A DNA stretch of 62,076 nt from a virus, in IMG/VR virus record IMGVR_UViG_3300023235_000025; one strand, written 5' to 3'. Shown in pieces: positions 128 to 62,076 of this stretch. Position numbers and translations under genes: made by a program. Under the pieces are notes generated by a model, which saw only the letters and a list, made by a program, of their open reading frames with translations, had not been told where the DNA came from and searched no databases. Positions within the stretch are counted from its first letter, which is position 1, and every line of letters starts with the position of its first letter.

Positions 128-158
128 CAATTTTGACTTGAAGCGGTTTGGTAAATGA
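1..158 (+). CDS. 3' part of a 61-aa hypothetical ORF that starts at 61922 and wraps the junction
   Basis: The frame continues from ATG 61922 through the overlap to TGA 156-158. Confidence 0.5.
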   Translation, partial: SNVKSVENISDEWVDLWQQVELWYGDIQKKETGQQLLERLQSNFDLKRFGK

Positions 159-263
159 ATGCTAACGGTTTGTGTATGAAAAGTAGCCCATACACAGGCG
201 TTCTGAATTATTACAAAACTTAATTAGGCTATTTTTTATACACATTGTTATAAACCGTTTATT

Positions 264-443
264 ATGGATTTTCACGAAAGAAAACAAAAGAGAAAAGAGC
301 ATTTTGAGAAATATGAAAAAGGATGGAAAGATAGACCTTGTGGTGCTTGTAATGGAAGTGGTTATTATGACCATAACGGAAGCCCAAAATGTGGTGCTTG
401 TAATGGCACAGGAAAAGAGAAGTGCAAGTCAAATGGTTTATAA
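264..443 (+). CDS. Small Cys-rich protein with two CxxCxGxG (DnaJ-type zinc-finger) motifs
   Basis: 59-aa ORF below the track cutoff: ...RPCGACNGSGYYDHNGSPKCGACNGTGKEKC... Same strand as its neighbours. It explains the region better than antisense track ORFs 162..374 and 262..477. Confidence 0.6.
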   Translation: MDFHERKQKRKEHFEKYEKGWKDRPCGACNGSGYYDHNGSPKCGACNGTGKEKCKSNGL

Positions 444-579
444 CGTTTAATGTATGGCAAGTAGCCGATTTAAGCACGGAATTTAGTAGATAAACAAATA
501 TTAATAATTAAGCAAATAGTTTCAAAAAGACCCGTAACACGGCTATTTGCTATACATAGTGTTATAGGGCGTTTTTATT

Positions 580-978
580 ATGGTACTTGGATTTAAACCT
601 CAATTTGTAGATAAAATCATTAGCGAAAAGAAACTACATACTATTAGAGAGGATAAGAATAGACGATGGAAAGTAGGTAATGACATCCATTTTGCGACTG
701 GAATTAGAACTAAAAAATACAACCAATTTTATAAAAGCCGTTGTAAAAAAATAGACGAAATTGAAATAATTTGGAACCATCCATTTAGGGCAGACTTCAA
801 TTCAAGTAGTTGCGTAATGATTGATGGTAAAGGATATTTTTCTGTAATTGTAAACGGAAGAAGATTAGGCTATTCAGAAATATCACACTTAGCAAAAAAT
901 GATGGCTTTAATGGTGTAGAAGATTTTGCAGATTGGTTTAATGCAGATTTTATTGGACGTTTAATCCATTGGTTCTAA
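580..978 (+). CDS. Hypothetical protein with weak ASCH-like N-terminus
   Basis: 132-aa ORF. N-terminus KPQFVDKIISEKKLHTIRED resembles ASCH-domain phage proteins, from memory only. Confidence 0.5.
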   Translation: MVLGFKPQFVDKIISEKKLHTIREDKNRRWKVGNDIHFATGIRTKKYNQFYKSRCKKIDEIEIIWNHPFRADFNSSSCVMIDGKGYFSVIVNGRRLGYSEISHLAKNDGFNGVEDFADWFNADFIGRLIHWF

Positions 979-1037
979 TGCCCTATAACGCTAAGGCTAT
1001 GCACTGATTTTTAACGGATTTAAAACACAAAACAAAA

Positions 1038-1286: not shown

Positions 1287-1343
1287 TTGTTGCTAACGTA
1301 TGGTAATAAGATTTGTGGCTTTTCGCCATTAATTTTATTACGT

Positions 1344-1358
1344 GTTACCTACTGGTGC
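1344..1358. repeat. Left inverted repeat GTTACCTACTGGTGC flanking the beta-class MTase gene
   Basis: Pairs with 2267-2281. Confidence 0.85.
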
Positions 1359-1450
1359 GACTTTAAACGCCTAAACTTAATTAATAGAACTGAACCTTTT
1401 TCTTTTCTTTTTTGAGCGTTGGTAAAATTAATTTGATAAAATTAAAATAT

Positions 1451-2266
1451 ATGGAACGAATACCTTTTAACGAAAACAGAAACGAGGATTGTTTAGAAAC
1501 TATGGCAAATATGCCAAATGATTTTTTAGACTTAACAATCACATCTCCACCGTATGACGATATGAGGACATATAACGGATATTGCTTTGACTTTGAAAGT
1601 GTAGCAAAAGAACTGTTTAGAGTAACTAAAAACGGTGGTGTAGTTGTTTGGGTTGTTAATGATAAAACAAGCAAGGGAACTGAAAGCCTAACGAGTTTTA
1701 AACAAGCGTTATATTTTAGCGAATGTGGGTTTAACGTTGAAACCATGATTTGGGAAAAAACTGGAAGTGGGTGCTTGGGCAGTAATAAATTTTACGGACA
1801 AAATTTTGAGTATATGTTCGTTTTTACTAAAGGTATGCCAATTACGACTAACTTAATTTATGATAGACCAAACAAAGTAAAAAGCGGAAAAGTAAAGGTT
1901 AATGGTGGTCTGGATAAGAGTGGAAAAGGGAAAAATAGAATAGTTGAAAGGAAACCTTTTGGTAAAAGAAACAATATTTGGCGTTTTGATACTCAAAAAA
2001 ATAGCGAGCACCCTGCACCGTTTCCTGAAAAATTAGTAAACGACCACATAATAACTTGGACAAATGAGGGTGATTTGGTTTATGACCCATTTAACGGAAG
2101 CGGAACAACTGCCAAAATGAGTATTTTAAATAACCGTAATTGGATTGGAAGCGAAATATCAAATGAATATTGTGATATTATTGAAGAACGAGTAAAAAAA
2201 GCGTTGGAAGAAAAAAGAAAAGAAAAAGAGATTGAATCACCAACTTTGTTTAATGAACTGAATTAA
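1451..2266 (+). CDS. DNA methyltransferase, beta-class N6-adenine/N4-cytosine type
   Basis: Motif IV (TITSPPYDD) precedes motif I (DPFNGSGTT). The ATG at 1451 is preferred over the TTG at 1412. Confidence 0.85.
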   Translation: MERIPFNENRNEDCLETMANMPNDFLDLTITSPPYDDMRTYNGYCFDFESVAKELFRVTKNGGVVVWVVNDKTSKGTESLTSFKQALYFSECGFNVETMIWEKTGSGCLGSNKFYGQNFEYMFVFTKGMPITTNLIYDRPNKVKSGKVKVNGGLDKSGKGKNRIVERKPFGKRNNIWRFDTQKNSEHPAPFPEKLVNDHIITWTNEGDLVYDPFNGSGTTAKMSILNNRNWIGSEISNEYCDIIEERVKKALEEKRKEKEIESPTLFNELN

Positions 2267-2281
2267 GCACTTGTAGGTAAC
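2267..2281. repeat. Right inverted repeat GCACTTGTAGGTAAC flanking the beta-class MTase gene
   Basis: Starts immediately after the TAA stop. Confidence 0.85.
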
Positions 2282-3105: not shown

Positions 3106-3522
3106 ATGGCAGGAGTTAATAAAGTAATACTATTAGGACATCTCGGTAAAGATCCAGAGGTTAAGCATTTAGAAGGGGATAATGTAGTTGCCAACCTCAC
3201 ACTGGCAACATCCGAATCCTACAAAGATAAGTCGGGTAATAAAGTAGACACTACCGAGTGGCATGATCTGGAACTATGGGACGGTCAGGCCCGGGTGGCA
3301 GAGCAATATTTGAAAAAAGGCAGCCAGATCTATGTGGAGGGTAAGATCAAGACCGATTCTTGGAAAGATGATCAAGGCAACAATCGAAAAAGAACCAAGG
3401 TCAGAGTCATTTCTTTCACCATGCTCGGAGGGGGACAATCTAACCAGTCTACCCCAAGCAAGCCTAAAGAGCCAGACATAAATACTACCACGGACGATGA
3501 GAGTGATGCACTCCCCTTCTGA
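3106..3522 (+). CDS. ssb: Single-stranded DNA-binding protein
   Basis: OB-fold signature NKVILLGHLGKDPE...TEWHDLELWDGQA...IYVEGKI, a Gly/Ser/Pro linker and an acidic C-terminal tip DDESDALPF. Confidence 0.9.
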   Translation: MAGVNKVILLGHLGKDPEVKHLEGDNVVANLTLATSESYKDKSGNKVDTTEWHDLELWDGQARVAEQYLKKGSQIYVEGKIKTDSWKDDQGNNRKRTKVRVISFTMLGGGQSNQSTPSKPKEPDINTTTDDESDALPF

Positions 3523-3523
3523 T

Positions 3524-3907
3524 ATGGCCAAATGGACTAGATCATCTATAAAAAAGAGTATGGTTTCTGGGGAAATCGAGGAGTCATACTCTTTATTTGA
3601 AAAACTACTCACTTCCGAGATAGCAAAACCAGTAAGGGAGTTCATGTTTCATCCTAAAAGAAAGTGGAGATCAGACTTTTCTTATCCAGATATCAAGCTG
3701 GCCATAGAAATCGAAGGTGGGGCGAGAACAAGGGGAAGACATACTAGAGGGCAGGGGTTTATTGATGACATGGAAAAGTATAATGCAATGACCGAGCTAG
3801 GATGGCGATTACTAAGGTTTATTCCCCAGGATTTAACAAAATCCACAACAATAGACCAAATTAAGATATGCTACTCCACTCGTATAGTATTTCTACCGCC
3901 TGTGTAA
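3524..3907 (+). CDS. PD-(D/E)XK endonuclease, Vsr/DUF559-like
   Basis: WRSDFSYPDIKLAIEIEGGARTRGRHTRGQGFIDDMEKYNAMTELGWRLLRF. The ATG at 3524 lies immediately after the ssb stop. Confidence 0.55.
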   Translation: MAKWTRSSIKKSMVSGEIEESYSLFEKLLTSEIAKPVREFMFHPKRKWRSDFSYPDIKLAIEIEGGARTRGRHTRGQGFIDDMEKYNAMTELGWRLLRFIPQDLTKSTTIDQIKICYSTRIVFLPPV

Positions 3908-3948
3908 CTGTCCTTTGAAGTTTATTAATATTTATCAACCTTTAACAT

Positions 3949-4257
3949 ATGAATAAATTATCAAAATTCCTGTTCGGGAATAGATCCAAATTAGCTAGTC
4001 TCTTTATGTATGCGATACATAGTGATTACACTTCCTACTGCACATTTGCAAGGAGGAGTAAAATCACTTCTCATGACATATATACGGGGCTGGAATTAGT
4101 TGATATCCGATTGGAAGAAAGTATTTCCACCTCAAATCTGCACGATGTGGATTTCAGAAAGAAAACATTGAGGGAATTATTCGTTCTAATAAAAAAAGAA
4201 AAAGAAACCATAATAAAAGACATATCGTATGACGTCGCAAAAAATACCCAGAATTGA
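3949..4257 (+). CDS. Hypothetical protein
   Basis: 102-aa ORF in an operon context. Confidence 0.45.
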   Translation: MNKLSKFLFGNRSKLASLFMYAIHSDYTSYCTFARRSKITSHDIYTGLELVDIRLEESISTSNLHDVDFRKKTLRELFVLIKKEKETIIKDISYDVAKNTQN

Positions 4258-4519
4258 CTATCCTAAAAGAGGAGAGCTAAAATCTTACATTTTAATAAGT
4301 AAAGCAGTAAAGAGAGTCAGATTATTGAGTAAAGAGGTGATCAAAAGCGTATTCTCTCCTAAGCAAACATTATCCAATAATGACTACGAAGACCACGTAT
4401 CAAAGCTTCACGGGAAAATACTAGGGTCTGATCTTGAATCAGTAGAAAAGTCATTGAAATTGTCCGGTAAGGAATTAGTGCTGTTTGTCAATAAAATCAA
4501 AACATCAAAATATAAATAA
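4229..4519 (+). CDS. Hypothetical protein
   Basis: 96-aa ORF in an operon context. Confidence 0.45.
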   Translation: MTSQKIPRIDYPKRGELKSYILISKAVKRVRLLSKEVIKSVFSPKQTLSNNDYEDHVSKLHGKILGSDLESVEKSLKLSGKELVLFVNKIKTSKYK

Positions 4520-4520
4520 A

Positions 4521-5414
4521 ATGGAAGATCAAGAAGATTTCAGTGTAGAGCAAATATCTATCAGTCAAGAAGAGGGCGCTATAAATGCCCAGGTAGCAAC
4601 TGCTCATGCGTACCCCAGAAACATTAAGGGGGCTCTAAACGATGCTATAGCTACTGTTACTATGGATGTCGAGACAGCGCAAACATGTAACTACTCCCTA
4701 CCTAGAGGGGGTAAGACTATTTCGGGCCCGAGTGTTCATTTGGCCAAAATACTTGCCCAAACATGGGGGAATATGAGGGTTGAAGCAAAAATATCCGCAA
4801 TAGATAGCGGAACCATAACTTCGCAAGCTGTAGCGTTTGATTTACAAAAGAACTTAGCGATTAAGATTGAAGTAAAGAGGTCTATCATGACTAAAAACGG
4901 CAGGATGAAGGATGATATGATCACTGTTACTGGAAACGCCGCCAATGCTATAGCTATGAGAAACGCTATTTTGTCTGTAATCCCAAAAGCTGTTGTAGAT
5001 AAAGTGTACAACGCAGCCAAATCACTTATTACCGGAGATGTTTCAGATGAAGTGAAGATGGTCAAGAAAAGGAACAATGTCCTTGAAATGTTTGACGGTA
5101 AACTTAATGTTTCAGAAGCGGAAGTTTTAGCTTTGCTAGGGAAGGGCAAAAGGGAGAATATTGACGCTGACGATCTTGTAACCCTTATAGGTGTAGCTCA
5201 AGCAATAAAGGACGGGGACACTACAGTAGAAGATACTTTCCGACCTAAGAAAAGTGTTTCTCCGAAAAAAGACCTAGAGGCCGAGAGGGTGTCTGGCTTT
5301 ATTGGTAAAGCGAAAACTTTAGATGACCTTGAAATGCTAAAAGACAACCTTACTCCTGAGACTGAACTTGCATGGAAGGCTAAATGGATAAAATTGGGAG
5401 GGGAAAATGAGTAG
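4521..5414 (+). CDS. Putative recombination protein (candidate single-strand annealing protein)
   Basis: About 297 aa. Lies directly upstream of, and overlaps, a PD-(D/E)XK exonuclease gene, with ssb nearby. The call rests on gene context only. Confidence 0.4.
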   Translation: MEDQEDFSVEQISISQEEGAINAQVATAHAYPRNIKGALNDAIATVTMDVETAQTCNYSLPRGGKTISGPSVHLAKILAQTWGNMRVEAKISAIDSGTITSQAVAFDLQKNLAIKIEVKRSIMTKNGRMKDDMITVTGNAANAIAMRNAILSVIPKAVVDKVYNAAKSLITGDVSDEVKMVKKRNNVLEMFDGKLNVSEAEVLALLGKGKRENIDADDLVTLIGVAQAIKDGDTTVEDTFRPKKSVSPKKDLEAERVSGFIGKAKTLDDLEMLKDNLTPETELAWKAKWIKLGGENE

Positions 5415-6282
5415 TAAGATTTTAGACTTTAGCAAATGGCTATGCCGAGCATCGCAGTCATCGAAATTAATGACCGGAACCCTGGGGATAACTAGCAATC
5501 AAGAAGCAACCCTTCAAAAGCTAGAGGATAAAATTGCATCAGGAAAACCCCTCACTCCCCTACAGGAAATTGAATACAATAAGCTCTTGTGTTCTAAAGC
5601 CGATAGGAGTCTTCCCAAAACCGCACAATCCTATTTAAGGGCTGAACATAGGGAAATGAAGTATGATCGAATCTTCCTGTTTACAAATAAGTACACCCAA
5701 AAGGGAATACTTCAAGAAGATGAAAGTATAACGCTACTATCGAATCATTTAGGTGTTCCTCTATTTAAAAACGAAGAGAGAAGAGAGAATAAATTCTTTA
5801 CTGGATTACCAGATCTTACTCCTAAGATTATCAAGCACGGAATAGACGTAAAGTCATCATGGGAATTAGGCACTTTTCCTTACGATGGCGACCCTCTTGA
5901 TCCGGTTTATGAGTCTCAAAATCAGGTTTACATGAATCTTTGGGATTGTGACAGATGGGACACCGTTTACTGCTTAGTGAATGCCACCGATCAAATGGTT
6001 TATAATGAGAAGCAAAAATTCTATTATGCGCTAGGGCAGCCAGATTTAGAAGATCCAATCTATATAGGAATCTGCAAGGAAATTGAAAAGAAAATGATCT
6101 TCGATAAGAAACGTTTCGATGATGCCTACCCTATGTTTAATTGGGATACAGAAGATTGGACTTACGATATCCCAGAAGAAGATAGAGTTGTTTCCTTTAC
6201 CTCAATCAGAAACGATGAATACGTAAAAGAAATGGAAGAAAGGGTTGTTGTTGGCAGGGAATACTTGAAATCATTAAAATAA
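5407..6282 (+). CDS. PD-(D/E)XK exonuclease, YqaJ/lambda-Exo-like
   Basis: N-terminal CRASQSSKLMTG resembles YqaJ. Catalytic-like motif LPD...x10...IDVKSS. Confidence 0.5.
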   Translation: MSSKILDFSKWLCRASQSSKLMTGTLGITSNQEATLQKLEDKIASGKPLTPLQEIEYNKLLCSKADRSLPKTAQSYLRAEHREMKYDRIFLFTNKYTQKGILQEDESITLLSNHLGVPLFKNEERRENKFFTGLPDLTPKIIKHGIDVKSSWELGTFPYDGDPLDPVYESQNQVYMNLWDCDRWDTVYCLVNATDQMVYNEKQKFYYALGQPDLEDPIYIGICKEIEKKMIFDKKRFDDAYPMFNWDTEDWTYDIPEEDRVVSFTSIRNDEYVKEMEERVVVGREYLKSLK

Positions 6283-7073: not shown

Positions 7074-8006
7074 ATGTCCATCAAAGAGCTAGTAAACGAA
7101 ATAAGGAGAAAATTAGTGAATAACGAGCTAACAAAAACCAATGGAACCAAGTATTCAGTTAGGACAGTTTCTTGTTACAATATTATCCTGTCCTCTCTGT
7201 TGGTTATAATGGGCGATTTTGACACTGATTCAGCATCTAAAAAAGATATTGATGCGTGGGTAAATGATATTCGGAGTCAGTTGAGAGATAAGGGCAATGA
7301 ATCTGTCACAGAAAACACTTACATATCGTGCCTGAAATGGGCTATAAACAAAGCCTCAGACGTTCTTGATGTAAATGTAGCTACTAAAGGGTCAGCATGG
7401 TCTAAGCTTCCTGATGATCACCAAATGATAGTCCCTGAGTATTCTCGTGTGATAGGTATGATTAAATCCTTTAAACCTGTGTCCGATCTGCAAGAAAAAG
7501 CATTCAAATACATAAAAGTCGCTGCTTTTACTGGTGCTAGGTACTCGGACATGAAATCATGGACTCATGAGAGGAATATCGTAGGAAATCATTTGGTTTA
7601 TATTCCAAAAAAGACAGGTGGTAAACTCATTAAAATACCCGTGCTCCCATTGTTTGATTTCGGGCAAACGAACTTACTCCCTGGAATACCTTACACCACC
7701 CTATTAAAAGAGGTGAAATCTATATTTAGATTGTCTGGATTTACCAGAGACGTGATACGAGAGAGAGAAGTTGGGAGCGAGAAGGTGTTCGTAAAAAATC
7801 AAGAGTGGGAATTAATGGGGCTTCACAGGCTCAGAGCATCGGCTATAACCGGAATGCTTCAAAATGGAATGACCGAGACAGAAGTAAAGTCATTCTCTGG
7901 GCATTCAATGGATTCTAAATCGTTCAAGAGGTATGTTGACTTAGACCACTCACATTTGGAGGATAAATATAGGGGGTTTATGAGCGGGATGCAGGGGTAT
8001 AGTTAA
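7074..8006 (+). CDS. int: Tyrosine recombinase / phage integrase
   Basis: Box I GARYSDM. C-terminal HRLRASAITGMLQNG...FSGHS...FKRYVD gives the R..H-x-x-R..Y catalytic pattern. Confidence 0.85.
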   Translation: MSIKELVNEIRRKLVNNELTKTNGTKYSVRTVSCYNIILSSLLVIMGDFDTDSASKKDIDAWVNDIRSQLRDKGNESVTENTYISCLKWAINKASDVLDVNVATKGSAWSKLPDDHQMIVPEYSRVIGMIKSFKPVSDLQEKAFKYIKVAAFTGARYSDMKSWTHERNIVGNHLVYIPKKTGGKLIKIPVLPLFDFGQTNLLPGIPYTTLLKEVKSIFRLSGFTRDVIREREVGSEKVFVKNQEWELMGLHRLRASAITGMLQNGMTETEVKSFSGHSMDSKSFKRYVDLDHSHLEDKYRGFMSGMQGYS

Positions 8007-8733: not shown

Positions 8734-9045
8734 ATGAAAAAAGCAGAATTTATAAAAATAGTAAGTAAGATTGAAGATACTTTTGAAGATGAATTTAGAG
8801 CAGAATTTAATAGCCCTGAACTTATTTGGGAAGCACTAATAAAGCAATTAACTATACCCGTTGTTGTGAAATCGTTGCCACAGGATAACTTTTGCATAGT
8901 ATGCAACTTACCAACGGATGGCGAAAAGTGTTATAGTAAGCGATGCCCTGTATATTGGCTATGTTTTACAACTCGTTTATTAACGTATTACGCTTTTTCA
9001 CACCTAAAAAAATCATTTTTAAATTTCAATAGAAAATATCAATGA
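8734..9045 (+). CDS. Hypothetical protein; last 26 codons are encoded by the 80-bp repeat module
   Basis: 103-aa ORF. The C-terminus ...FTTRLLTYYAFSHLKKSFLNFNRKYQ lies inside repeat 8968-9047. Confidence 0.5.
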   Translation: MKKAEFIKIVSKIEDTFEDEFRAEFNSPELIWEALIKQLTIPVVVKSLPQDNFCIVCNLPTDGEKCYSKRCPVYWLCFTTRLLTYYAFSHLKKSFLNFNRKYQ

Positions 9046-9047
9046 TA
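8968..9047 (+). repeat. 80-bp exact direct repeat, copy A
   Basis: Identical to 60735-60814, checked base by base. Includes the ATGATA start of the downstream ORF. Confidence 0.95.
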
Positions 9048-9212
9048 GTACGATCTAAAGTGACCCAAACAATAAAAAGGAAGACGAAAAAACCTATAAT
9101 ATTGTGCTATGAAGGAGATATTTTAAATGTGACAGCCGACCATGGGAATGTATTAATCGTTTTTAAAGACGGGTATTTCCCAATAAAAAAAATCAGAAAT
9201 AGAGGATATTGA
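9042..9212 (+). CDS. Hypothetical protein (56 aa)
   Basis: ORF below the track cutoff. Its ATG-ATA start is part of the 80-bp repeat. It ends 1 nt before the next ATG. Confidence 0.45.
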   Translation: MIVRSKVTQTIKRKTKKPIILCYEGDILNVTADHGNVLIVFKDGYFPIKKIRNRGY

Positions 9213-9213
9213 C

Positions 9214-9408
9214 ATGACAAAAGAGAAATTATTAGAAGTTGTAAAACACACAGTAAGTAGAGTGAAAGACTCTGATCATTTTCCGTTCGCTATACTAAGC
9301 GGTATTTTAGAGAACAAAATATGGAAACCAGACTTCATCAATATGGTGAAGGATTCAGATATTAACGAACCATTTAAAAATAAAATACTCGATGAGATCA
9401 ATAAATAA
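9214..9408 (+). CDS. Hypothetical protein
   Basis: 64-aa ORF. Confidence 0.5.
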   Translation: MTKEKLLEVVKHTVSRVKDSDHFPFAILSGILENKIWKPDFINMVKDSDINEPFKNKILDEINK

Positions 9409-9976
9409 ATTCACAATAGATTACCCGATGCTCCAGGATGATAAAATCAGGCACGGAACGTTAGTTCTTCACGATTTTAAAGACATCAAGCCGGAATGGA
9501 AGCTTATTCTTCATGGAAAAGTGATTCACAGTCCAGTATCTAAGAAGCACAAGGATTTAAAAAAAGGAGATACCATTTATTTCCATTACCTAGAGGCTGA
9601 CGAAGACAATATGATGGATGGAATGCTATTTGTCGACGCTTTGAAAGTATTCTGCTATGTGAGAGACGGGGTTATTCACACGTATAATGATTTTGTTTTA
9701 ACTGTTCCTGCCTATCCTGAAAACACTCAAAAAATAGACGTGGACGGAAAAGAGATAACTGCATTCGTTGGGAAGTCTGGTTTAGTCGAAAAAATAGACA
9801 TCGAGCACAGTAAGAACCTTACGAGAGTTCTTCACTGTGATGATAACACATTAGGGCTTAATCCGGATGATGTGGTTATAATGAGAAAAAGTAGTGACCA
9901 ATTCTATAAAATCGAAGGTAGGGATATGTTTCCTATTCCAGAGAGGGATATTGTAGGTAAGTATTCAAAATGGTAA
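9392..9976 (+). CDS. Hypothetical protein
   Basis: 194-aa ORF. Confidence 0.55.
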   Translation: MRSINKFTIDYPMLQDDKIRHGTLVLHDFKDIKPEWKLILHGKVIHSPVSKKHKDLKKGDTIYFHYLEADEDNMMDGMLFVDALKVFCYVRDGVIHTYNDFVLTVPAYPENTQKIDVDGKEITAFVGKSGLVEKIDIEHSKNLTRVLHCDDNTLGLNPDDVVIMRKSSDQFYKIEGRDMFPIPERDIVGKYSKW

Positions 9977-16300: not shown

Positions 16301-19300
16301 ATAAGGCTTTTTCAGACAAATTTAAATTGGACTTTCTTTCTCCTATTTCATTTAAGATTGATTCATACTCATTAAACACCTCATTAGGCACTATTTTTGG
16401 GTTTAATTTAAGCATTCTGTCCAGTGGGCTATTTGGAGATAATGTTCCAATTCTACCTTTTTTAACATTATTTTTAGCTGTAGCAATCTTAGATCTAGCT
16501 CCTTTTAACCTCTTTCTTGTTCCAGACTTAGCTATTACGTCAAAAATAGCATCAATAGCCTTATTGACTGATCTTTCTGTTTTGGCTTTGTTTAATTCAG
16601 TAACTATTTTGTTTATTTCGGACTTAGTAAAATCATCAAGAGGAGTGTCTTTTATATCATCTTTCACAAATTTGGTTACAATATTTTTCATTGCCTGAAC
16701 CTTATCTGATTTGTCCTTGGCTTTTTTACTAGCAACTTTTACTCCCTCTTTAAAACCTTCTTTTGCTGCTTTAACCCTGCTCCTGAGATCTTTTTTCATC
16801 TCGTTATACTCATTTACAGATGTGTCTTTTTCTTTTGATGGCTTTCCCTCAGTGGATTCCTTTATCTGCTGCTTGATAGATAACGGCTTTGCTTCTTTTT
16901 TTCTGGATTTAAGGGGTATTCCTTTGGTATCCTTTTTAGTTTCTGACAATCTAAATTTGCTAATACCTTCTATAGATTCATTATTTGGATTGCTTTTTGA
17001 CAAGTTATATATGTAAGATGACTTTATAGCATCAAAGTTTTCTATAAGTTTCTCTGACCCTATGTTATCTCTTATCCATTCTACTAATTGCTCAAATGTA
17101 TTAATTCCAAGTTTACCTGCTTTAACTATTATTTTACCAGCTATAGCTAATTGATCAGGAGAAACGCCACCAGACGTAAGATTATTTTTTCCAGCATCAA
17201 AAAAATCACTAAATAGATTAGTTATTTCTTCTTTAATTTCTTTTGATTTTTTTGATAGATCTTTCTTTTTTGGCTGTGTTTTTTCTGTTTTAGTGTTTTT
17301 ACTGTCAGTCAACTCTACAATATTATCAACCATTGCAGCAGGATATCTTCCTCTGTCTGGTGATTCTACAGACCCATCTTCATTAAGCCTACCTTCTATG
17401 AATTCCCCGAATAAAGTAAATCCTATTTTTGGCCTGGCGTCTTCCTTTTCAATTTTAGTTTCTTCGGGGATTACTTCCTCTGTTTTTTCAGGAATAATCT
17501 CTATTTTAACCTTTTCCTTGGGTTCTTTTTGAGGAACTTCTGGCTCTGGTATTTGCTCATCTTTAGACTGTTTCGACTGTTTAACTTCTTGCTTCTCTTG
17601 GTTCTTTAATTCGTAATCAGCTAATGATTTCGGCACAGTCACCCTTATTATTTCTTCTCCCTTATCATTTGTCCCCCTTGATGATACCCTATCTTTGAAA
17701 ACATCAGGGATTTCATCCTCTTTATTATAGGTGAATGTTACAAGATCTCCATTTATAGCTTCCTCATACTGCTGTTCATCTGATGGTTTGTCTACCTGAA
17801 CTTGTTCACTAACTCCTTCAACATCGGATTTTTCTCCACCATTTTCATTAACAGGAAGTTCCTTTCCTTCACCGTCTTGGCTATCTGCTGGTTTTGCTTC
17901 ATTCTCGGGTTCAATGATTGGTTCATCTTCTTTAGTGATTTCTTTTTTCTTTGCGACAACCGAGTAGTCAGTTTCAGCGTATGGGTCAGATTTGTTTGTG
18001 TTGTCAACTATCGAAAACTCCATGTTAGGGTATTTCTCAGACAATGCATCCACCTTAGAGTTAGCTTCTGCTTCACTCATCCCTTCCTCTACTGCCTCAA
18101 TAGTCCCGTCAGGGTTTTCAATAAAGTCCATTTCAGACTCATTTACTTGTAGTTTTTTAACACTGGTATTCTCTAAGTTTTCTACGCTCTCTTTTTTAGC
18201 TTCTTTTTTCTTTGCGACAACAAAGTAGCCAGTCTCAGCGTATGGGTCAGATTTGTTTGTGTTGTCAACTATCGAAAACTCCATGTTAGGGTATTTTTCA
18301 GACAATGCATCCACCTTAGAGTTAGCTTCTGCTTCACTCATCCCTTCCTCTACTGCCTCAATAGTCCCATCAGGCATTTCTATAAAGTCCATTTCGGACT
18401 CATTTACTTGTAGTGTTATAACACTGGTATTCTCTAAGTTTTCTACGCTCTCTTTTAATGATTCATTATTCTGATCAATGGATTTTATTTTTGACTCGAG
18501 CTCTTTTATAGACTTGTCTATAATATCCTTATTGGCGCCAGAGAAATTCCCTCTTCTTTTTGTTAGTGCGCTCATAGCGGTATTCATCAAGAAGCCTACC
18601 GTTCCGCCTATAGCGCCTTCCTCACCTACGCCATCAAGTATTTCCCTGTTGAAATCATAAATTCTTTGAGCTGACATATTAGCAAAGGTTGCTTGCCACA
18701 TCTCAGTAACCGCTTCCTCCGTAAACCCTACAGCTCCATCCTTGACTACGCTTAATATTTTGGCCCCGGGTTCTATTTTCTTGATCCTAGAGAACATACT
18801 TTGAACTGGAAGAGACTCCATTACAGATCCTACGATAAAGTTTTCTATGGCATATTGAAGAGCCTCGTCTTCTGTGGCCCCTGATTCAATAGCCTCTTTA
18901 TACATTGGTGCAGCCATTTGAGAACCGCCTATCAACCCCTGTTTAGAACCTACTCTGCTCAATACTTCTTTTCCTGCTTTTATATAAGGAGTTAGTTTTG
19001 TACCTTTAATTAGAGCTGTTTTTACTAATTGAGCGGTGCCCGATTGCCCTCCGGTTAAAACCATTGGTACTATTTGCCCTAATCCGGCAACTACCCCGCC
19101 TCCAAAAGTCTGTTCATCCCCTTCATTTACAGGGTAAAGCTCTTCTGTAAACTTCCTCCAATCGTCCGCTATTTTAAACGTTCCTATATCAGACGCTTTC
19201 AGCTCTTTATTTGCAGGTTTTCCAATAACAGGAACATTAGCTAATTGTCTCTCTGTAAAAGCACTAGCGATAGCCCACGCTTCTAATATGTCTGCTGGAG

Positions 19301-41918: not shown

Positions 41919-42194
41919 ATGAAGCGAAAAAAAATACCTGAATGGGAACACATAACCGACTATAGACCATTTGAAAGAAAAACCTATGAGTTTGATTTTA
42001 GCCTTGGAAATGATAGAGATGGAACTACACATTTTAAGCCAACAGATATAAGAGGTGAAAGATTGGCTGCATTAAATTACGCTCGTGAAATAGTAATAGA
42101 CCCTTGTAACTCTAAATGGCTCGAAAGAAGAAAATTAACAGACTCTTTTCAAATGGGCGTTGAATATGCTAGACGTTACTTAAATAATGGCTAA
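41919..42194 (+). CDS. Hypothetical protein
   Basis: 91-aa ORF. Its stop codon lies inside a GCTAACG box. Confidence 0.5.
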   Translation: MKRKKIPEWEHITDYRPFERKTYEFDFSLGNDRDGTTHFKPTDIRGERLAALNYAREIVIDPCNSKWLERRKLTDSFQMGVEYARRYLNNG

Positions 42195-42200
42195 CGAATA

Positions 42201-42235
42201 GCTATAAGAGCCGTTTTTTCAATGGCTTTTATAGC
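42201..42235 (+). other. 12-bp hairpin preceding the left inverted repeat of the Dcm cassette
   Basis: GCTATAAGAGCC, an 11-nt loop, then GGCTTTTATAGC (11 of 12 pairs). Confidence 0.7.
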
Positions 42236-42237
42236 GT

Positions 42238-42252
42238 GTTACCTGCTGGTGC
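42238..42252. repeat. Left inverted repeat GTTACCTGCTGGTGC flanking the C5-MTase gene
   Basis: Pairs with 43456-43470. The same motif flanks the MTase at 1451..2266. Confidence 0.85.
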
Positions 42253-42280: not shown

Positions 42281-43456
42281 ATGACGAAACTTAGTAATAA
42301 TATTTTTTTGAGCGATGGCAAATTAGGCCATAGCCTAAAACACGGATCTCTTTTCTCTGGAATAGGTGGTTTTGATTTAGCAGCTCAATGGATGGGATGG
42401 GAGAATATCTTCCATTGCGAATGGAACGAGTTTGGTCAAAAAATACTAAAACATTACTGGCCTAAAGCAATATCTTATGAAGACATTACCAAAACAGACT
42501 TCTCTATTCATAGAGGAAAAATCGACATCCTTACAGGAGGTTTCCCCTGCCAACCTTATTCATCAGCAGGTAAAAGACTTGGTAAGGAAGACGATAGACA
42601 TCTCTGGCCGCAAATGCTTAGAGCAATTCGAGAGATTCAGCCCAGGTATATCGTGGGAGAAAACGTTTATGGACTCACTAATTGGAATGGAGGATTGGTT
42701 TTCAACGAGGTGCAAACTGACTTGGAAAATGAAGGGTACAAAGTACAACCGTGTATTCTTCCAGCTGCTGCCGTCAACGCTCCCCATAGAAGAGATAGAG
42801 TTTGGTTTGTGGCCTACGCCAACGAGCGTACAACAGGACCATCCCGAACGAGTGGAAAAACTGAAAGCGACTGGAGCAAAAACAATGATGAGCAGAGCTG
42901 CGGGAGAAAACAGACCGAACAGCATAATAGATGCAGCAATGTTTTACAACTTACTTCCAACCCCAGTAGTAATGGACACAAATTGCGGAGACCTGGAGAA
43001 AATAGACAAACGAAGAGAGAGAGCAAAAGCAAAGGGGATAAACGGGAACGGCTTTGGAATGACGATTGGCGAAATGGCAAACAGGAAAATGTTACCGACA
43101 CCTGCAATGAGAGATTACAAAGGAGGAAACTCGATGGAACACTTGACAAGAAAGCCAAAAAGCAAAGGGAACAGCCATCAGGATCAGCTACCGAACGCCA
43201 TCAAATTACAGACTGGGAGCAATGGCCAACTCAATCCCCAATTTGTGGCCGAAATGATGGGTTTTCCAACCAACTGGACGGAATTACCTTTCCTAAATGG
43301 CGACAAGAATCAATTAAAGGATATGGAAACGCAATAGTACCGCAAGTTGCATATCAAATCTTTAAAGCTCTTATGGCAACGGAAGCAAAAGAAGGGAGAA
43401 AAAAAATATTATTACGGGCTGATAAACACGAACCTTCAAGTTTAGCACAAACTTAG
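42281..43456 (+). CDS. dcm: DNA (cytosine-5)-methyltransferase (frame A)
   Basis: Motif I LFSGIGGFD, motif IV GGFPCQPYS, motif VI VGENV, motif VIII PHRRDRVWFVAY, motif X GYGNAIVPQVA. The interior of about 150 codons is low complexity. Confidence 0.85.
   Translation: MTKLSNNIFLSDGKLGHSLKHGSLFSGIGGFDLAAQWMGWENIFHCEWNEFGQKILKHYWPKAISYEDITKTDFSIHRGKIDILTGGFPCQPYSSAGKRLGKEDDRHLWPQMLRAIREIQPRYIVGENVYGLTNWNGGLVFNEVQTDLENEGYKVQPCILPAAAVNAPHRRDRVWFVAYANERTTGPSRTSGKTESDWSKNNDEQSCGRKQTEQHNRCSNVLQLTSNPSSNGHKLRRPGENRQTKRESKSKGDKRERLWNDDWRNGKQENVTDTCNERLQRRKLDGTLDKKAKKQREQPSGSATERHQITDWEQWPTQSPICGRNDGFSNQLDGITFPKWRQESIKGYGNAIVPQVAYQIFKALMATEAKEGRKKILLRADKHEPSSLAQT
42477..43337 (+). CDS. Nested +1-frame ORF (286 codons) with MTase target-recognition/motif-IX-like sequence
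   Basis: LWPTPTS, LLPTPVVMD, MLPTPAMRDYKGG and LNPQFVAEMMGFPTNWTEL, lying entirely inside the dcm ORF. Status unresolved: separate product, frameshift segment or split enzyme. Confidence 0.45.
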   Translation: MKTLPKQTSLFIEEKSTSLQEVSPANLIHQQVKDLVRKTIDISGRKCLEQFERFSPGISWEKTFMDSLIGMEDWFSTRCKLTWKMKGTKYNRVFFQLLPSTLPIEEIEFGLWPTPTSVQQDHPERVEKLKATGAKTMMSRAAGENRPNSIIDAAMFYNLLPTPVVMDTNCGDLEKIDKRRERAKAKGINGNGFGMTIGEMANRKMLPTPAMRDYKGGNSMEHLTRKPKSKGNSHQDQLPNAIKLQTGSNGQLNPQFVAEMMGFPTNWTELPFLNGDKNQLKDMETQ

Positions 43457-43470
43457 CACTTGCAGGTAAC
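43456..43470. repeat. Right inverted repeat GCACTTGCAGGTAAC flanking the C5-MTase gene
   Basis: Starts at the last base of the stop codon. Reverse complement is GTTACCTGCAAGTGC. Confidence 0.85.
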
Positions 43471-49375: not shown

Positions 49376-49684
49376 ATGAGCGACGACCAAAAATTAGAAT
49401 TAGGAATTGAAATAGTGGCAGCAATGAAAGCCACTTGTTACACTTCTTGGGACATTGAAACAGGCAGGATTGATGCCCTGATGGAAACCGAGACCGATAG
49501 AATGGAGGGGGTAACGAAGGAAGATTGGGACGATTTCACCCCCCAGCAGAAGAAAAGGTTTAAAATGTTCTGTGAGTCAGAGAAGAGAATACTACACAAG
49601 CAAGCTTTATTCGTAGCAGGGGCGGCTATTAAAAAGTATCAGGAGATTTTCACTAAAAACAACTCTAAAAATAATAAAGGATGA
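49376..49684 (+). CDS. Hypothetical protein
   Basis: 102-aa ORF. Confidence 0.5.
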   Translation: MSDDQKLELGIEIVAAMKATCYTSWDIETGRIDALMETETDRMEGVTKEDWDDFTPQQKKRFKMFCESEKRILHKQALFVAGAAIKKYQEIFTKNNSKNNKG

Positions 49685-50298
49685 AGGTACTGAGCTTAAA
49701 AATACTGGTAGGATGCGAAGAAAGTCAAGCGGTAACGGTAGAGCTTAGAAAACGTGGACACGAAGCGTATTCTTGTGACTTACAAAACTGTAGTGGAGGA
49801 CGTCCTGAATGGCACTTAAAAATGGATGTGCTTAAGGCTATAGAGTTAAAAGAGTGGGATATAGGGATATTCTTCCCTGATTGCACCTACCTAACCATAA
49901 GCGCCAATAAATGGTATAAAGACATGCCACCCAGAAAAAGCGGTGTTTTGGTCGGGGCAAAAAGGAGAGAAGCGAGAGAAAAGGCTATTGAGTTCTTTTT
50001 AAGGTTGTATAATTCAAAAATACCTAAAATAGCTATAGAAAACCCGATAGGAGTAATGAGTTCTAGGTTTAGAAAGCCGGATCAGGTATTGCAGCCATGG
50101 ATGTTTGGTCATGGGGAAACTAAAGCAACCTGTTTATGGCTTAAAAACTTACCAATATTAGAGCCTACCAATATAGTGGATGGTAGGTATCCAAGAATTC
50201 ATTTACTCCCAAACATAAAAGACAGAGCAAAACTTAGAAGCAAAACTTACCAAGGAATCGCAGAAGCAATGGCTTCTCAATGGACTTTAAATTCATAA
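49681..50298 (+). CDS. Dcm-fold-like small protein (putative DNA-modification family, function unproven)
   Basis: 205 aa. ILVGCEESQ in place of motif I, FFPDCTYLT resembles the PC motif IV, IENP resembles motif VI, and the C-terminus reads RSKTYQGIAEAMASQW. Confidence 0.5.
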   Translation: MKVLSLKILVGCEESQAVTVELRKRGHEAYSCDLQNCSGGRPEWHLKMDVLKAIELKEWDIGIFFPDCTYLTISANKWYKDMPPRKSGVLVGAKRREAREKAIEFFLRLYNSKIPKIAIENPIGVMSSRFRKPDQVLQPWMFGHGETKATCLWLKNLPILEPTNIVDGRYPRIHLLPNIKDRAKLRSKTYQGIAEAMASQWTLNS

Positions 50299-56644: not shown

Positions 56645-57160
56645 ATGAAACTACAACCATTAAATAAAACCGCTCTTTCTAGTCAATTGTATAATTTGAC
56701 AGGAAAATTTTTATCAGGTAGGGACTTTATCAGAAATGATGATGAAGTCATAGAAATAAGCACAGGGAAAAAATTCTATCTTCCAACACAAGAAGAGGAA
56801 GAGATTTTTAAAGCTGAGGAAGCCATCCGGCAAGAAGAGGAGAAAAAAGGAAAAAAACATAGACACGATAATAAAACCTATCCTTTTATTGATTATTTCA
56901 ACCATAAAAGATGGGTTACGGGACTTGATCACGCAAAAACAAAAGGATTTCCGAAAACAGAAATGTGTAAAGATTCTTATTGGCACTTTTTGGAATGCGT
57001 TCCACCAAAGAGAATGCATAAAGGTGCTTTTATATGTGGGGAGCCCTACACCCATAACGGACAAGGGGAAGCCATTTATTTGTGTGGAATTAAGGAAGGA
57101 AATAAATACTTTGCTAAGTACGGAACATTAAAACAATTTGATTCAAATAAACTATTTTAA
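56645..57160 (+). CDS. Hypothetical protein
   Basis: 171-aa ORF. Confidence 0.5.
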   Translation: MKLQPLNKTALSSQLYNLTGKFLSGRDFIRNDDEVIEISTGKKFYLPTQEEEEIFKAEEAIRQEEEKKGKKHRHDNKTYPFIDYFNHKRWVTGLDHAKTKGFPKTEMCKDSYWHFLECVPPKRMHKGAFICGEPYTHNGQGEAIYLCGIKEGNKYFAKYGTLKQFDSNKLF

Positions 57161-57164
57161 AACT

Positions 57165-57890
57165 ATGAAATACTCATTGAGACAAGATTTAGAAGCCTTA
57201 TCAATAGAAGGAAACAAAGCGTTTTTACCAAAAGAACCTTTAAGCGATTACGCAGAGTTAAAAAAAGCACTAACAAAGGCATGTGGTAAATACAAAAGCA
57301 ATTCATTTGAATTTCCCTATCCTGCAAAAGCAGTAATTGAATCGCTGAAAACCGGAAAAGTGATTGATTTCAAAAAAGAATTTCAATTATTTCATACAGA
57401 CAAGCCAGTAGCGGGGCAAATGATGAATGAAATTATCGGATACCCGAAAACCATATTAGAACCAAGCGCAGGACATGGGCACTTAATTGATGAATTAATA
57501 GCAGTATATCCCGATTCAAAAATTGATGCCGTGGATCTTTCAGAGTTAAATTTCTCGATTCTTAAAGATAAATACAAGGACAATCCAAATATAAACCTGA
57601 TACATGGCGACTACCTGGATTTTGTGCCCGGTAAAAAATATGATTTAATTTTTGCTAACCCTCCATTTAGTAAAAATCAAGACATAGACCATGTTTTAAA
57701 AATGGTTTCTGAAAAAGAGGATCAAGGGCAAATAATATCTATAATGTCTACATCCTGGACGTTTGGAAATCAAAAAAAGCAGGTGGAATTTAGGGAATTC
57801 GCAGAGGAAAATTTCATAATACGAACCAATGAAAACGGGGCGTTTAAATCTTCTGGTACAATGGTCAGTACTGTTTTAATAACAGGTTAA
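57165..57890 (+). CDS. N6-adenine DNA methyltransferase, gamma-class
   Basis: Motif I ILEPSAGHGHL precedes motif IV IFANPPFS. ATG at 57165, after the upstream stop. Confidence 0.85.
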   Translation: MKYSLRQDLEALSIEGNKAFLPKEPLSDYAELKKALTKACGKYKSNSFEFPYPAKAVIESLKTGKVIDFKKEFQLFHTDKPVAGQMMNEIIGYPKTILEPSAGHGHLIDELIAVYPDSKIDAVDLSELNFSILKDKYKDNPNINLIHGDYLDFVPGKKYDLIFANPPFSKNQDIDHVLKMVSEKEDQGQIISIMSTSWTFGNQKKQVEFREFAEENFIIRTNENGAFKSSGTMVSTVLITG

Positions 57891-61778: not shown

Positions 61779-61825
61779 AAGAAGAGGTTGTGGTATTACT
61801 AGCAAAATATTGTGGCTAACGGCAA

Positions 61826-61897
61826 GAATAAGGCAATGTAGCCCGCCTGACAAGTGGCTATGAAACACAACGCTGATTCGGGCTATTTGCTTTATTC
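61826..61897 (+). other. Long imperfect hairpin (11 + 7 bp stems)
   Basis: GAATAAGGCAA pairs with TTGCTTTATTC, and TAGCCCG pairs with CGGGCTA, enclosing a 33-nt loop. Confidence 0.7.
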
Positions 61898-61921
61898 AGT
61901 GTTGGCATTTCGTTTTAAGTA

Positions 61922-62076
61922 ATGGCACAAGACACAAGAAATTTAAAATTATCAAACGTAAAATCAGTTGAAAATATATCTGACGAGTGGGTTGATTTGT
62001 GGCAACAAGTTGAGTTATGGTATGGAGACATTCAGAAAAAAGAGACTGGACAGCAGCTATTGGAAAGGCTTCAATC
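61922..62076 (+). CDS. 5' part of the wrap-around 61-aa hypothetical ORF
   Basis: ATG at 61922. Continues in frame into 1..158. Confidence 0.5.
   Translation, partial: MAQDTRNLKLSNVKSVENISDEWVDLWQQVELWYGDIQKKETGQQLLERLQ
61950..62076. repeat. Terminal overlap, identical to 1-127
   Basis: Same comparison as for 1-127. Confidence 0.95.

Follow-up and report, generated by a model that had tools for sequence, protein, structure and literature searches.

Two DNA methyltransferase (MTase) genes in the viral DNA of IMG/VR record IMGVR_UViG_3300023235_000025 are each bracketed by a 15-base inverted repeat. The whole 62,076-nt stretch was analysed and is called the window. As judged from sequence comparisons, the repeats are the paired ends of portable cassettes with anti-restriction DNA-modification genes in phages of Flavobacteria-type hosts, and the arms GTTACCTRCTGGTGC / GCACTTGYAGGTAAC are the predicted outer helix (P1) of a two-part long-range stem. 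The element described in the original prediction, which had been made from the sequence alone, also includes a second helix (P2) and a shared leader and tail chassis. Pairing of the 5' and 3' ends of the mRNA, by which each cistron would be closed, together with shuffling of the cassettes at hairpin linkers, is the explanation favoured here, with a confidence just short of even.

The four 15-mers that had been described around a beta-class N6/N4 MTase gene and the unrelated gene of a C5 cytosine MTase (Dcm) were all found, at 1344, 2267, 42238 and 43456. The claimed pairing of 14 out of 15 positions was reproduced, with 13 Watson-Crick pairs, one G.U and one U.U between left and right arms, and so was the compensatory change, A or G on the left being matched by T or C on the right. 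In the beta-MTase cassette, the right arm lies just past the stop codon, as described; in the Dcm cassette, it overlaps the stop codon by one base. When up to 3 mismatches were allowed, 5 matches to the 15-mers were obtained in the window (1.1 expected; no shuffle reached 5). The fifth was one 3-mismatch chance match, and otherwise no copies were present besides the four arms. Since GTT...AAC inverted repeats, counted genome-wide, were not in excess of shuffled sequence, the significance of the arms rests on their position at the boundaries of open reading frames (ORFs).

Matches to the arm pattern in viral and bacterial genome contigs were kept only if a right arm was present within 3.5 kb. 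The right arm was demanded because the bulk of the matches to the pattern TTTGAGCGNTGGNAAA in viral contigs were due to chance (14 specified bases); the left-arm pattern alone gave mostly chance matches in viral and genome contigs, and these were removed by the requirement. At least 22 real cassettes were left among the matches listed, at least 20 of them in viral contigs in addition to the 2 of the window. The search for arm pairs in related phages, which had been proposed with the original prediction, thus showed the arms to flank DNA-modification genes in viral contigs, and the designation as a portable orphan-MTase cassette was borne out: one arm pair flanks at least 22 cassettes with four unrelated DNA-modification families and differing neighbours. 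Among bacterial genome contigs, no real cassette was present in the matches listed, and the conserved pattern of the hairpins between cassettes (H) had one match only, on a 2.8-kb contig of a metagenome-assembled genome.

The cargo comprised N6/N4 (beta) MTases of many lineages (25-60% identity among themselves), C5 MTases, D12-class Dam, a Mom-family protein and one protein without family. Among the matches listed, the A/T variant of the arms was matched in 7/7 cassettes and the G/C variant in 15/15; one right arm of the A/T cassettes (L014) had a single G-to-C mismatch elsewhere. The orientation was identical in 22/22 of these cassettes: leader ends invariably had the TGG version of the arm and tail ends the TTG version, and no hybrid arms occurred. 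The Mom-family protein lies between MTase-type arms in L217 (- strand, cassette 5005-5883). In L265 (- strand, cassette 8826-9771), such arms surround a 173-aa protein without family match, which is a candidate for a new DNA-modification or anti-restriction function.

Similarity of the window to known phages, by blastn, is confined to MTase genes and to the non-coding leader, which matches the Polaribacter phages P12002S/L and Flavobacterium phage mymlan6. Neighbours on both sides of the cassettes vary between loci, and similarity ends exactly at GTT and AAC. The precise boundaries that had been postulated were therefore found, but the bracket is not specific to MTases, as the ORFs 264-443 and 580-978 have arm pairs of their own. 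P12002S and P12002L differ by one whole unit (H, left arm, MTase, right arm) with ...TAACG on both sides. Homology breakpoints between loci cluster where the right arm ends and immediately 5' of the left arm. A small number of recurrent families make up the H hairpins, and their members adjoin different arms. Occurrence of the same MTases without the flanks had been named as an argument against the cassette; this was seen in part, in that close beta-MTase homologues carry other, mutually matched arms and a few homologues of the beta-MTase core are without recognisable left arm.

Complementarity of the arms is kept where their sequence differs. P12002S/L and mymlan6 have the same grammar with other arms that still match each other, and arm pairs of relatives include GTTGTATG(T)CTGGTGC / GCACTTGCATACAAC, GTTAGCAKTAGTAC / GTATTAMTGCTAAC and GTTATAAGCTGGCTGC / GCAGCTTGCTTATAAC. 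On a 5.8-kb contig (L031), at least 8 units follow in succession. An ORF-anchored search of related viral loci gave at least 12/13 pairs between the own flanks of 56/650 ORFs, compared with 0.23% for cross-paired flanks. A curated set of n=48 different arm pairs was taken from candidates already having at least 14 pairs and was then filtered by eye; the covariation figures derived from it (92% of cells pairing vs 64% in shuffled pairs; covariation score 0.716 vs 0.171, with 0/500 shuffles as high; 12/16 pairs changing on both sides) are partly circular because the pairs had been selected for pairing. The GUU/AAC ends were invariant in this set, and the G.U at position 11 was present in 48/48 pairs and in 53/68 unfiltered pairs. 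Position 10 of P1 is U.U or an A-U pair, and 1-4 unpaired nt lie between AAC or GTT and H; together with the G.U at position 11, these features are at most analogous to the extrahelical L-box bases and the unpaired central spacer of attC sites. In the variable columns 4-9 and 12-14, about 1% of the cells were unpaired, with cargo diverged to 25-30% identity. The cross-pairing controls (ORF flanks; own, neighbouring and random arms) are free of the circularity. Ends of the same cassette paired at 5.9/6 variable positions, those of neighbouring units at 4.1 and random combinations at 3.4, and complementarity is therefore a property of a unit's own ends and not of the arms meeting at a junction.

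The strand of the fold was derived from wobble pairs and hairpin stability. One-sided changes in the arms keep wobble pairing (L126, L133, L209); on the sense strand, 142 wobble pairs were counted vs 11 A.C. Of the junction hairpins, 44/51 were more stable on the coding strand (mean -27.4 vs -22.5 kcal/mol, p 2e-6). Because both features favour the coding strand, it is the sense strand that carries the structure, be it in mRNA or in single-stranded DNA. The distance from P1 to the ATG is 3-30 nt in small cassettes, the right arm of which includes the stop codon.

P2 is a predicted second long-range helix of 16-18 perfect pairs between each leader and the 3' end of the ORF that follows it. Its 5' strand in the beta cassette terminates at the TTG within the conserved motif TTGAGCGTTGGTAAA, read as M-S-V-G-K, and a compensated variant of this helix is present in P12002S/L. 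Mini-constructs of leader plus tail folded exactly into P1 and P2 (z -4.2 and -3.6). Across the loci, no fewer than 10 different sequences of P2 were counted, 14-20 bp long; where the leader is of the common type I, the 5' strand of P2 reaches to within 0-6 nt of the ATG or into it. P2 also tracks indels in the coding tail (CTTTTC/GAAAAG vs CTTC/GAAG). The 3' module is kept even if it is read in another frame or lies past a premature stop (L139, mymlan gp005), which argues that it acts as nucleic acid and not as protein.

The final ~20 codons of the beta-MTase ORF are part of a 3' tail module shared by unrelated MTase cores. Left arm, leader and 3' tail of this cassette also enclose MTase cores of only 27-32% identity (L014, L105). 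The N-terminal peptide MTKLSNNIFLSDGK (MTKxSNNIFLSDGK) and the C-terminal tail of the Dcm ORF form a chassis common to L051, where the Dcm leader, N-terminal peptide and tail surround a beta-MTase and are combined with different P1 arms. Arms, chassis and cargo thus appear as three nested layers, the 5' and 3' parts being matched at each layer.

A motif (A/T)TGAGCGNNGGNAAA, reading M-S-x-G-K, was observed at 1412-1426, at 42308-42322 and in the leaders of L251, L254, L189 and L200. C5 MTases of L251, L254 and L189 have it as their real N-terminus; in P12002S and mymlan it is an upstream ORF (uORF) of 7-8 codons, and the beta-MTase of the window has it as an in-frame extension from TTG. The combination of GAGCGNTGGNAAA and TTAATTTG was considered as a Bacteroidetes promoter and rejected, as spacing and -7 box do not fit; it is better explained as a conserved start region (MSxGK / MAK). 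In H hairpins or leaders, no clean Bacteroidetes-type TTG / TAnnTTTG pair at proper spacing was found by eye.

According to the mRNA reading, the arms would form P1 on the sense strand, most likely in mRNA, and tie the 5' end of the cassette to the region of its own stop codon, while in P2 the final ~20 codons would pair with the region of translation start. The completed transcript of each cistron would thereby close on itself. Initiation would be confined to nascent or actively translated RNA, and each cistron would be insulated or punctuated within a polycistronic early transcript, as in the fold-back of hok mRNA; the closed stems may also be substrates of an RNase specific for double strands. 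A helix can be transferred only with both of its strands, and everything from the GTT arm through the AAC arm would therefore behave as an indivisible module, and phages would exchange such modules at the conserved hairpin linkers. The GTTACCTRCTGGTGC / GCACTTGYAGGTAAC pair would mark one lineage, an expression chassis for anti-restriction DNA-modification genes. This reading is favoured because the constraint acts on the start and end of one unit and lies on the coding strand with G.U pairs, because P2 (P1 in small cassettes) is located at the start codon with its partner strand at or near the stop codon, and because a recombination site needs no P2. The common inheritance of leader and tail around MTase cores of 27-32% identity would count in the same direction.

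Several observations weigh against the mRNA reading. It does not predict invariant GTT/AAC ends beside a hairpin, and in integron attC sites no triplets other than GTT and AAC are conserved. The G.T wobbles equally fit a folded DNA strand. In the beta cassette of the window, P2 lies 38-55 nt upstream of the ATG and adjoins only a TTG, which is the start of a short uORF in P12002S and mymlan; occlusion of the start codon is therefore not evident in this cassette. A perfect P2 of 16-19 bp in many variants is unusually clean for slow compensatory evolution. The MTase cassette homologues L127, L142 and L143 have a right arm and no detectable left arm. The partial circularity of the curated pairs belongs here as well.

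Both functions named in the original prediction, recombination sites and 5'-3' RNA pairing, are the two leading explanations. If the repeats served recombination, they would be part of an integron-like single-stranded DNA cassette with the junction 'AAC - G - H - GT - GTT' as attC-type site; the arms of one cassette would be halves of an extended R box, pairing only in the excised circle or in a folded single strand, and a tyrosine recombinase of the host or of another element would cut between AA and C. We consider this rather unlikely. The AAC...GTT polarity around an imperfect hairpin of ~40-130 nt between small co-oriented ORFs fits attC, the two ends of an integron cassette are complementary to each other over 6-7 nt, and strand-specific G.T wobbles could aid strand selection. 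The gain or loss of one whole unit between P12002S and P12002L, bordered by ...TAACG, and the breakpoints at the arm boundaries also agree with it. Clusters of attC sites without integrase are by definition termed CALIN. A CALIN was predicted in P12002L, where the oligonucleotide of attC1 represents exactly the junction type described here and the terminal site attC2 was recombined with IntI1, but of six sites attC1 alone was not recombined by IntI1 (Qi et al. 2023, PMC9892861). In addition, the window encodes no integron integrase; the recombinase at 7074-8006 is weak and generic (NCBIfam 28 bits vs cutoff 220) and has no homologue in the P12002 or mymlan phages. The R-box halves at junctions are barely above random arms in complementarity (4.1 vs 3.4 of 6), the folded strand is the sense strand, opposite to canonical cassettes, the H hairpin has no consistent link to either neighbour, and P2 at the start codon is given no role. 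Among the matches listed, almost no such cassettes or hairpins were present in bacterial genomes.

The arms might instead be relics of local hairpins split by insertion of cargo and chassis into their loops, complementary by descent and without function, with shuffling by ordinary homologous recombination at repeated hairpin linkers. GTT...AAC hairpins that are short or empty and also show the G.U signature (63 nt in L060, 54 nt in L251, non-coding units of ~100 nt in L013) would suit such an origin, as would the nesting of P1, P2 and cargo, the independent exchange of arms and chassis (window Dcm vs L051) and the recurrence of H hairpins beside different arms. An exonuclease and a probable single-strand-binding protein are encoded near the array, and indels mediated by promoter-early stem-loops (PeSL) of T4-type phages provide a precedent (PMC2839356, PMC4122927). 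This origin is nevertheless improbable: near-perfect pairing of the arms persists with cargo at 25-30% identity, which argues for continued selection, one-sided changes preserve wobble pairs, P2 follows indels in the coding tail, and among the loci retrieved no empty hairpin with GTTACCTRCTGGTGC arms was present. An invertible segment with a phase-variable MTase, or a non-autonomous transposon, in which the arms were duplex protein-binding terminal inverted repeats, deserves very little credence. Epigenetic invertons likewise have inverted repeats around a methyltransferase gene (PMC7672463), and a tyrosine recombinase gene is located 5 kb away. All cassettes among the matches listed (22/22) have one orientation without hybrid arms, however, and the asymmetry of the arms is kept as U.U plus G.U. 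Arm sequences vary widely with complementarity kept, whereas a shared protein-binding site would lead one to expect the reverse; no target-site duplication was seen at the flanks by eye, and no transposase or invertase is located inside or beside the cassettes.

Beyond the mRNA reading, an undescribed integrase-free cassette system in phages of Flavobacteria-type hosts, in which an enzyme acting on the sense strand punctuates or silences cistrons and sets the points of exchange, is put forward as a speculative proposal that we hold to be somewhat unlikely. Every unit in it, coding or not, may be closed by a GUU...AAC helix of 14-16 bp with the G.U one helical turn from its base. Hairpins marked by G.U separate the units, and the helices may be recognition sites for a phage or host enzyme. 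One lineage may have become a plug-in chassis from which any DNA-modification enzyme directed against restriction obtains its start codon, N-terminal peptide, C-terminal tail and stop codon along with an RNA that closes on itself. In many loci, the H hairpins have a core in common, ...GCGAAGU... paired with ...AUUUUGC..., with two conserved G.U (e.g. L031 2124-2206; window 450-557). Because the AGU/AUU context of one of these is the same as that of the G.U in P1, a single recognition factor for H and P1 is suggested. Units of 54-105 nt with GTT...AAC ends, without ORF and with internal small hairpins only, were observed in L013 (- strand, 1770-1870 and 1955-2055), L060 (- strand, 2115-2177) and L251 (2075-2128); these may be empty cassettes or small structured RNAs.

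In the window itself, the grammar of the array reads (hairpin H - GTT arm - ORF - AAC arm)n, with five units (Table 1). Positions 61950-62076 are identical to 1-127. On account of this terminal overlap of 127 nt, the window represents a complete genome, circularly closed or terminally redundant, of ~61,949 bp (GC 36.9%). The arms of cassette 0 pair if one U is bulged, by which the CGUUU/AAAUG motif with its G.U is restored (by eye). Those of cassette 1 form 14/14 pairs (13 Watson-Crick and G.U at position 11). Hairpin H2 folds at -29.8 kcal/mol (z -3.9). The GCTAACG box and hairpin reported before both left arms are present, but the box turned out to belong to the preceding unit, whose right arm ends with it (...AAC, followed by G). 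For the remnant TTGTTGCTAAC, a partial partner GTTAGCAAC was located at 1179-1187 within the ORF 1038-1286; the same right arm forms a full bracket in L142 (GTTAGCAACTGGGCAG / TAGCCTTGTTGCTAAC). The 82-aa ORFs adjoining the two MTase cassettes were considered as paralogues and rejected, since no similarity exists between them.

Table 1. Coordinates of array units, methyltransferase cassettes and helix strands in the window.
Feature	Position	Strand	Remarks
Junction hairpin H0	61820-61900	+	-31.4 kcal/mol, z -3.6; after right-arm end GGCTAAC (61813-61819) of preceding unit
Left arm, cassette 0	61901-61916	+	GTTGGCATTTCGTTTT
Cassette 0 ORF	61922, through terminal overlap, to stop 156-158	+	spans window ends
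Right arm, cassette 0	153-166	+	AAATGAATGCTAAC; holds stop codon; ends in first 'GCTAAC G' box
Junction hairpin H1	167-246	+	-24 kcal/mol, z -4.0
Left arm, cassette 1	247-260	+	GTTATAAACCGTTT; 3 nt upstream of ATG 264; pairs with 431-444
Cassette 1 cargo	264-443	+	59-aa protein, two CGACNG(S/T)G motifs; no Pfam match
Right arm, cassette 1	431-444	+	AAATGGTTTATAAC; holds stop codon
Junction hairpin H2	445-560	+	18-bp stem (450-467 with 540-557), G.U pairs, 72-nt loop
Left arm, cassette 2	561-574	+	GTTATAGGGCGTTT; 5 nt upstream of ATG 580; 13/14 pairs with 976-989
Cassette 2 cargo	580-978	+	132-aa protein, no family assigned
Right arm, cassette 2	976-989	+	TAATGCCCTATAAC; begins with stop codon
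Right-arm remnant ('GCTAACG box' of the original prediction)	1287-1297	+	TTGTTGCTAAC; after ORF 1038-1286
Junction hairpin H3, upstream of beta-MTase cassette	1299-1343	+	-17.2 kcal/mol, z -3.9
P1 5' strand, left arm of beta-MTase cassette	1344-1358	+	GTTACCTACTGGTGC
P2 5' strand, beta cassette	1396-1413	+	CTTTTTCTTTTCTTTTTT; 18/18 complementary to 2211-2228
Beta-class N6/N4 DNA methyltransferase ORF	1412-2266	+	PF01555, E 3e-38; start TTG 1412 or ATG 1451
P2 3' strand, beta cassette	2211-2228	+	AAAAAAGAAAAGAAAAAG; codes for EKRKEK of C-terminal tail
P1 3' strand, right arm of beta-MTase cassette	2267-2281	+	GCACTTGTAGGTAAC; begins directly after stop codon
GCTAACG, end of unit before Dcm cassette	42190-42196	+	holds stop codon of ORF 41919-42194
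Junction hairpin H4, before Dcm cassette	42197-42237	+	-20.4 kcal/mol, z -4.9
P1 5' strand, left arm of Dcm cassette	42238-42252	+	GTTACCTGCTGGTGC
C5 cytosine DNA methyltransferase (Dcm) ORF	42281-43456	+	PF00145, E 4e-49
P2 5' strand, Dcm cassette	42294-42309	+	GTAATAATATTTTTTT; covers codons 5-10; 16/16 complementary to 43400-43415
P2 3' strand, Dcm cassette	43400-43415	+	AAAAAAATATTATTAC
P1 3' strand, right arm of Dcm cassette	43456-43470	+	GCACTTGCAGGTAAC; overlaps last base of TAG stop

Two more DNA methyltransferase genes (49681-50298 and 57138-57890, both +) are without GTT/AAC bracket; the former resembles mymlan gp005 by eye (C-terminal motif GIAEAMASQW in both), which is bracketed in mymlan. 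The Dcm ORF is overlapped over most of its length by a 286-aa ORF in another frame (42477-43337, +), for which tblastn matches to E 7e-32 with 89-100% coverage were obtained; they fall within the C5-MTase genes of phages of Bacteroides and Paenibacillus. The match in the Bacteroides phage represents an alternative frame, because the annotated protein aligns with the main frame (41% identity), and in the Paenibacillus phages the matching gene is annotated as two coding sequences. Either a programmed frameshift or a conserved gene overlapping Dcm could account for the region 42477-43337.

Just 3' of the cassette array, an apparent recombination module is located (3106-6282, +) with a probable single-strand-binding protein (3106-3522; blastn match annotated PriB/SSB), a phrog_3657 protein with no function assigned (4485-5414) and an exonuclease (5407-6282). 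A divergent tyrosine recombinase/integrase is encoded at 7074-8006 (+; phrog_1 E 6.5e-11; Pfam score under cutoff), the phage relatives of which are only integrases of Bacteroides/Phocaeicola phages with ~28% identity; given this gene, the phage may be temperate. As a cassette recombinase it was rejected, being a weak generic tyrosine recombinase without homologue in other array-bearing phages. A 32-nt stretch atccaccttagagttagcttctgcttcactca occurs twice, 261 nt apart (18048-18079 and 18309-18340), within an ORF of 2183 aa on the - strand, and the duplication points to an internal repeat in the gene of this giant structural protein. Rfam families were absent at gathering thresholds throughout the window, and positions 1-2600 had no match even with E up to 5 allowed. 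When the DnaB helicase served to look for phages closely related to this one but lacking the Dcm cassette, one relative only was obtained (36% identity), and the presence or absence of a cassette was compared in the P12002S/L indel instead.

Orphan methyltransferases are the main passive defence of phages against restriction, and their rapid acquisition and swapping are poorly understood. Here, unrelated families (beta N6/N4, C5, Dam, Mom) are carried by one standard, precisely bounded module that can be searched by its arms, which would yield a catalogue of anti-restriction cargo, also of cargo without assigned function such as the 173-aa protein of L265. The architecture links two fields. 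On the one side, it resembles the attC cassettes of integrons, recently reported in phages without explanation; on the other, the strongest constraint joins the start of a gene with its own end and may point to post-transcriptional control of a kind seldom met except in toxin mRNAs and RNA phages. Bacteroidota are not known to use Shine-Dalgarno sequences in translation initiation, and a structure-based initiation switch would for this reason be informative in these hosts. The invariant G.U and the GUU/AAC ends are concrete targets for mutagenesis, and the cassette ends could serve as designed, insulated expression units.

Among known systems, RNase III stems bracket 16S and 23S rRNA and occur in early mRNAs of T7, internal mismatches being typical. 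Like these long-range or local stems, the helices described here would punctuate a polycistronic transcript and enclose each functional unit, but P1 has only 14-16 bp and its cleavage is a proposal. GUU/AAC ends and a G.U at position 11 are not known as determinants of RNase III. In T4-type phages, PeSL elements act as mobile regulatory cassettes (Arbiol et al. 2010, PMC2839356; Comeau et al. 2014, PMC4122927), with which the arrays share repeated intergenic stem-loops between accessory genes in plastic regions, at breakpoints of insertion, deletion and replacement. PeSL are, however, direct repeats with sigma-70 early promoter and terminator, and have no gene-specific inverted-repeat bracket.

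For Flavobacterium or Cellulophaga phages, the only prior description found in the literature is that of Qi et al. 2023 (PMC9892861), who reported a CALIN with two MTase cassettes in Polaribacter phage P12002L. Their attC1 failed and their attC2 succeeded with IntI1, attC1 being the single failure of six sites. By its sequence, the AAC-hairpin-GTT junction described here is what these authors called attC in P12002L; the pairing of gene flanks, P2 and the chassis are not in their report. From our own reading of their Table S3, in which the aadA7 control marks the forward oligonucleotides as bottom strands, the 'bottom strand' of attC1 is the sense strand of the MTase. Integron cassettes and the present units are alike in compact co-oriented ORFs, imperfect hairpins bounded by ...AAC and GTT..., MTase cargo and the complementarity of the two ends of a cassette. 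The attC form AAC-(1-4 nt)-hairpin-(1-3 nt)-GTT was found in all five junctions of the window and in 51 of related loci. GCTAAC / GTTACC of the window does not fit the R-box consensus RYYYAAC / GTTRRRY, whereas some relatives do (GCCTAAC / GTTAGGC), and beyond GTTA/TAAC, neighbouring arms at junctions pair at 4.1/6 positions vs 3.4 for random arms. The present units differ from integron cassettes by a pairing of 14-16 bp plus second helix, compared with 6-7, which spans the whole gene between the ends of one cassette and is not within the junction. Here the coding strand folds, whereas the better-folding strand of attC is antisense to the ORF. No IntI is encoded in the window, and a junction of this type failed in the IntI1 assay. 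The hairpins belong to a few recurrent families that move independently of both neighbours.

In hok mRNA of hok/sok from plasmid R1, the tac/fbi pairing between 5' and 3' ends blocks translation (PMC9841398). This pairing and the long-distance interactions of RNA phages share with the cassettes a covariation-backed 5'-3' helix that encloses a whole ORF; this helix sequesters the start of translation in those systems and would do so in the cassettes, leaving the completed mRNA closed. By analogy of position, P2 would correspond to tac/fbi at the start codon in type-I leaders and at codons 5-10 of Dcm, but not at the ATG of the beta cassette. The cassettes differ in that no toxin is involved and neither an antisense RNA nor a 3' processing step is known; their ORFs reach 1.2 kb, the structure is repeated for each cistron, and its ends are at the same time the boundaries of a DNA module.

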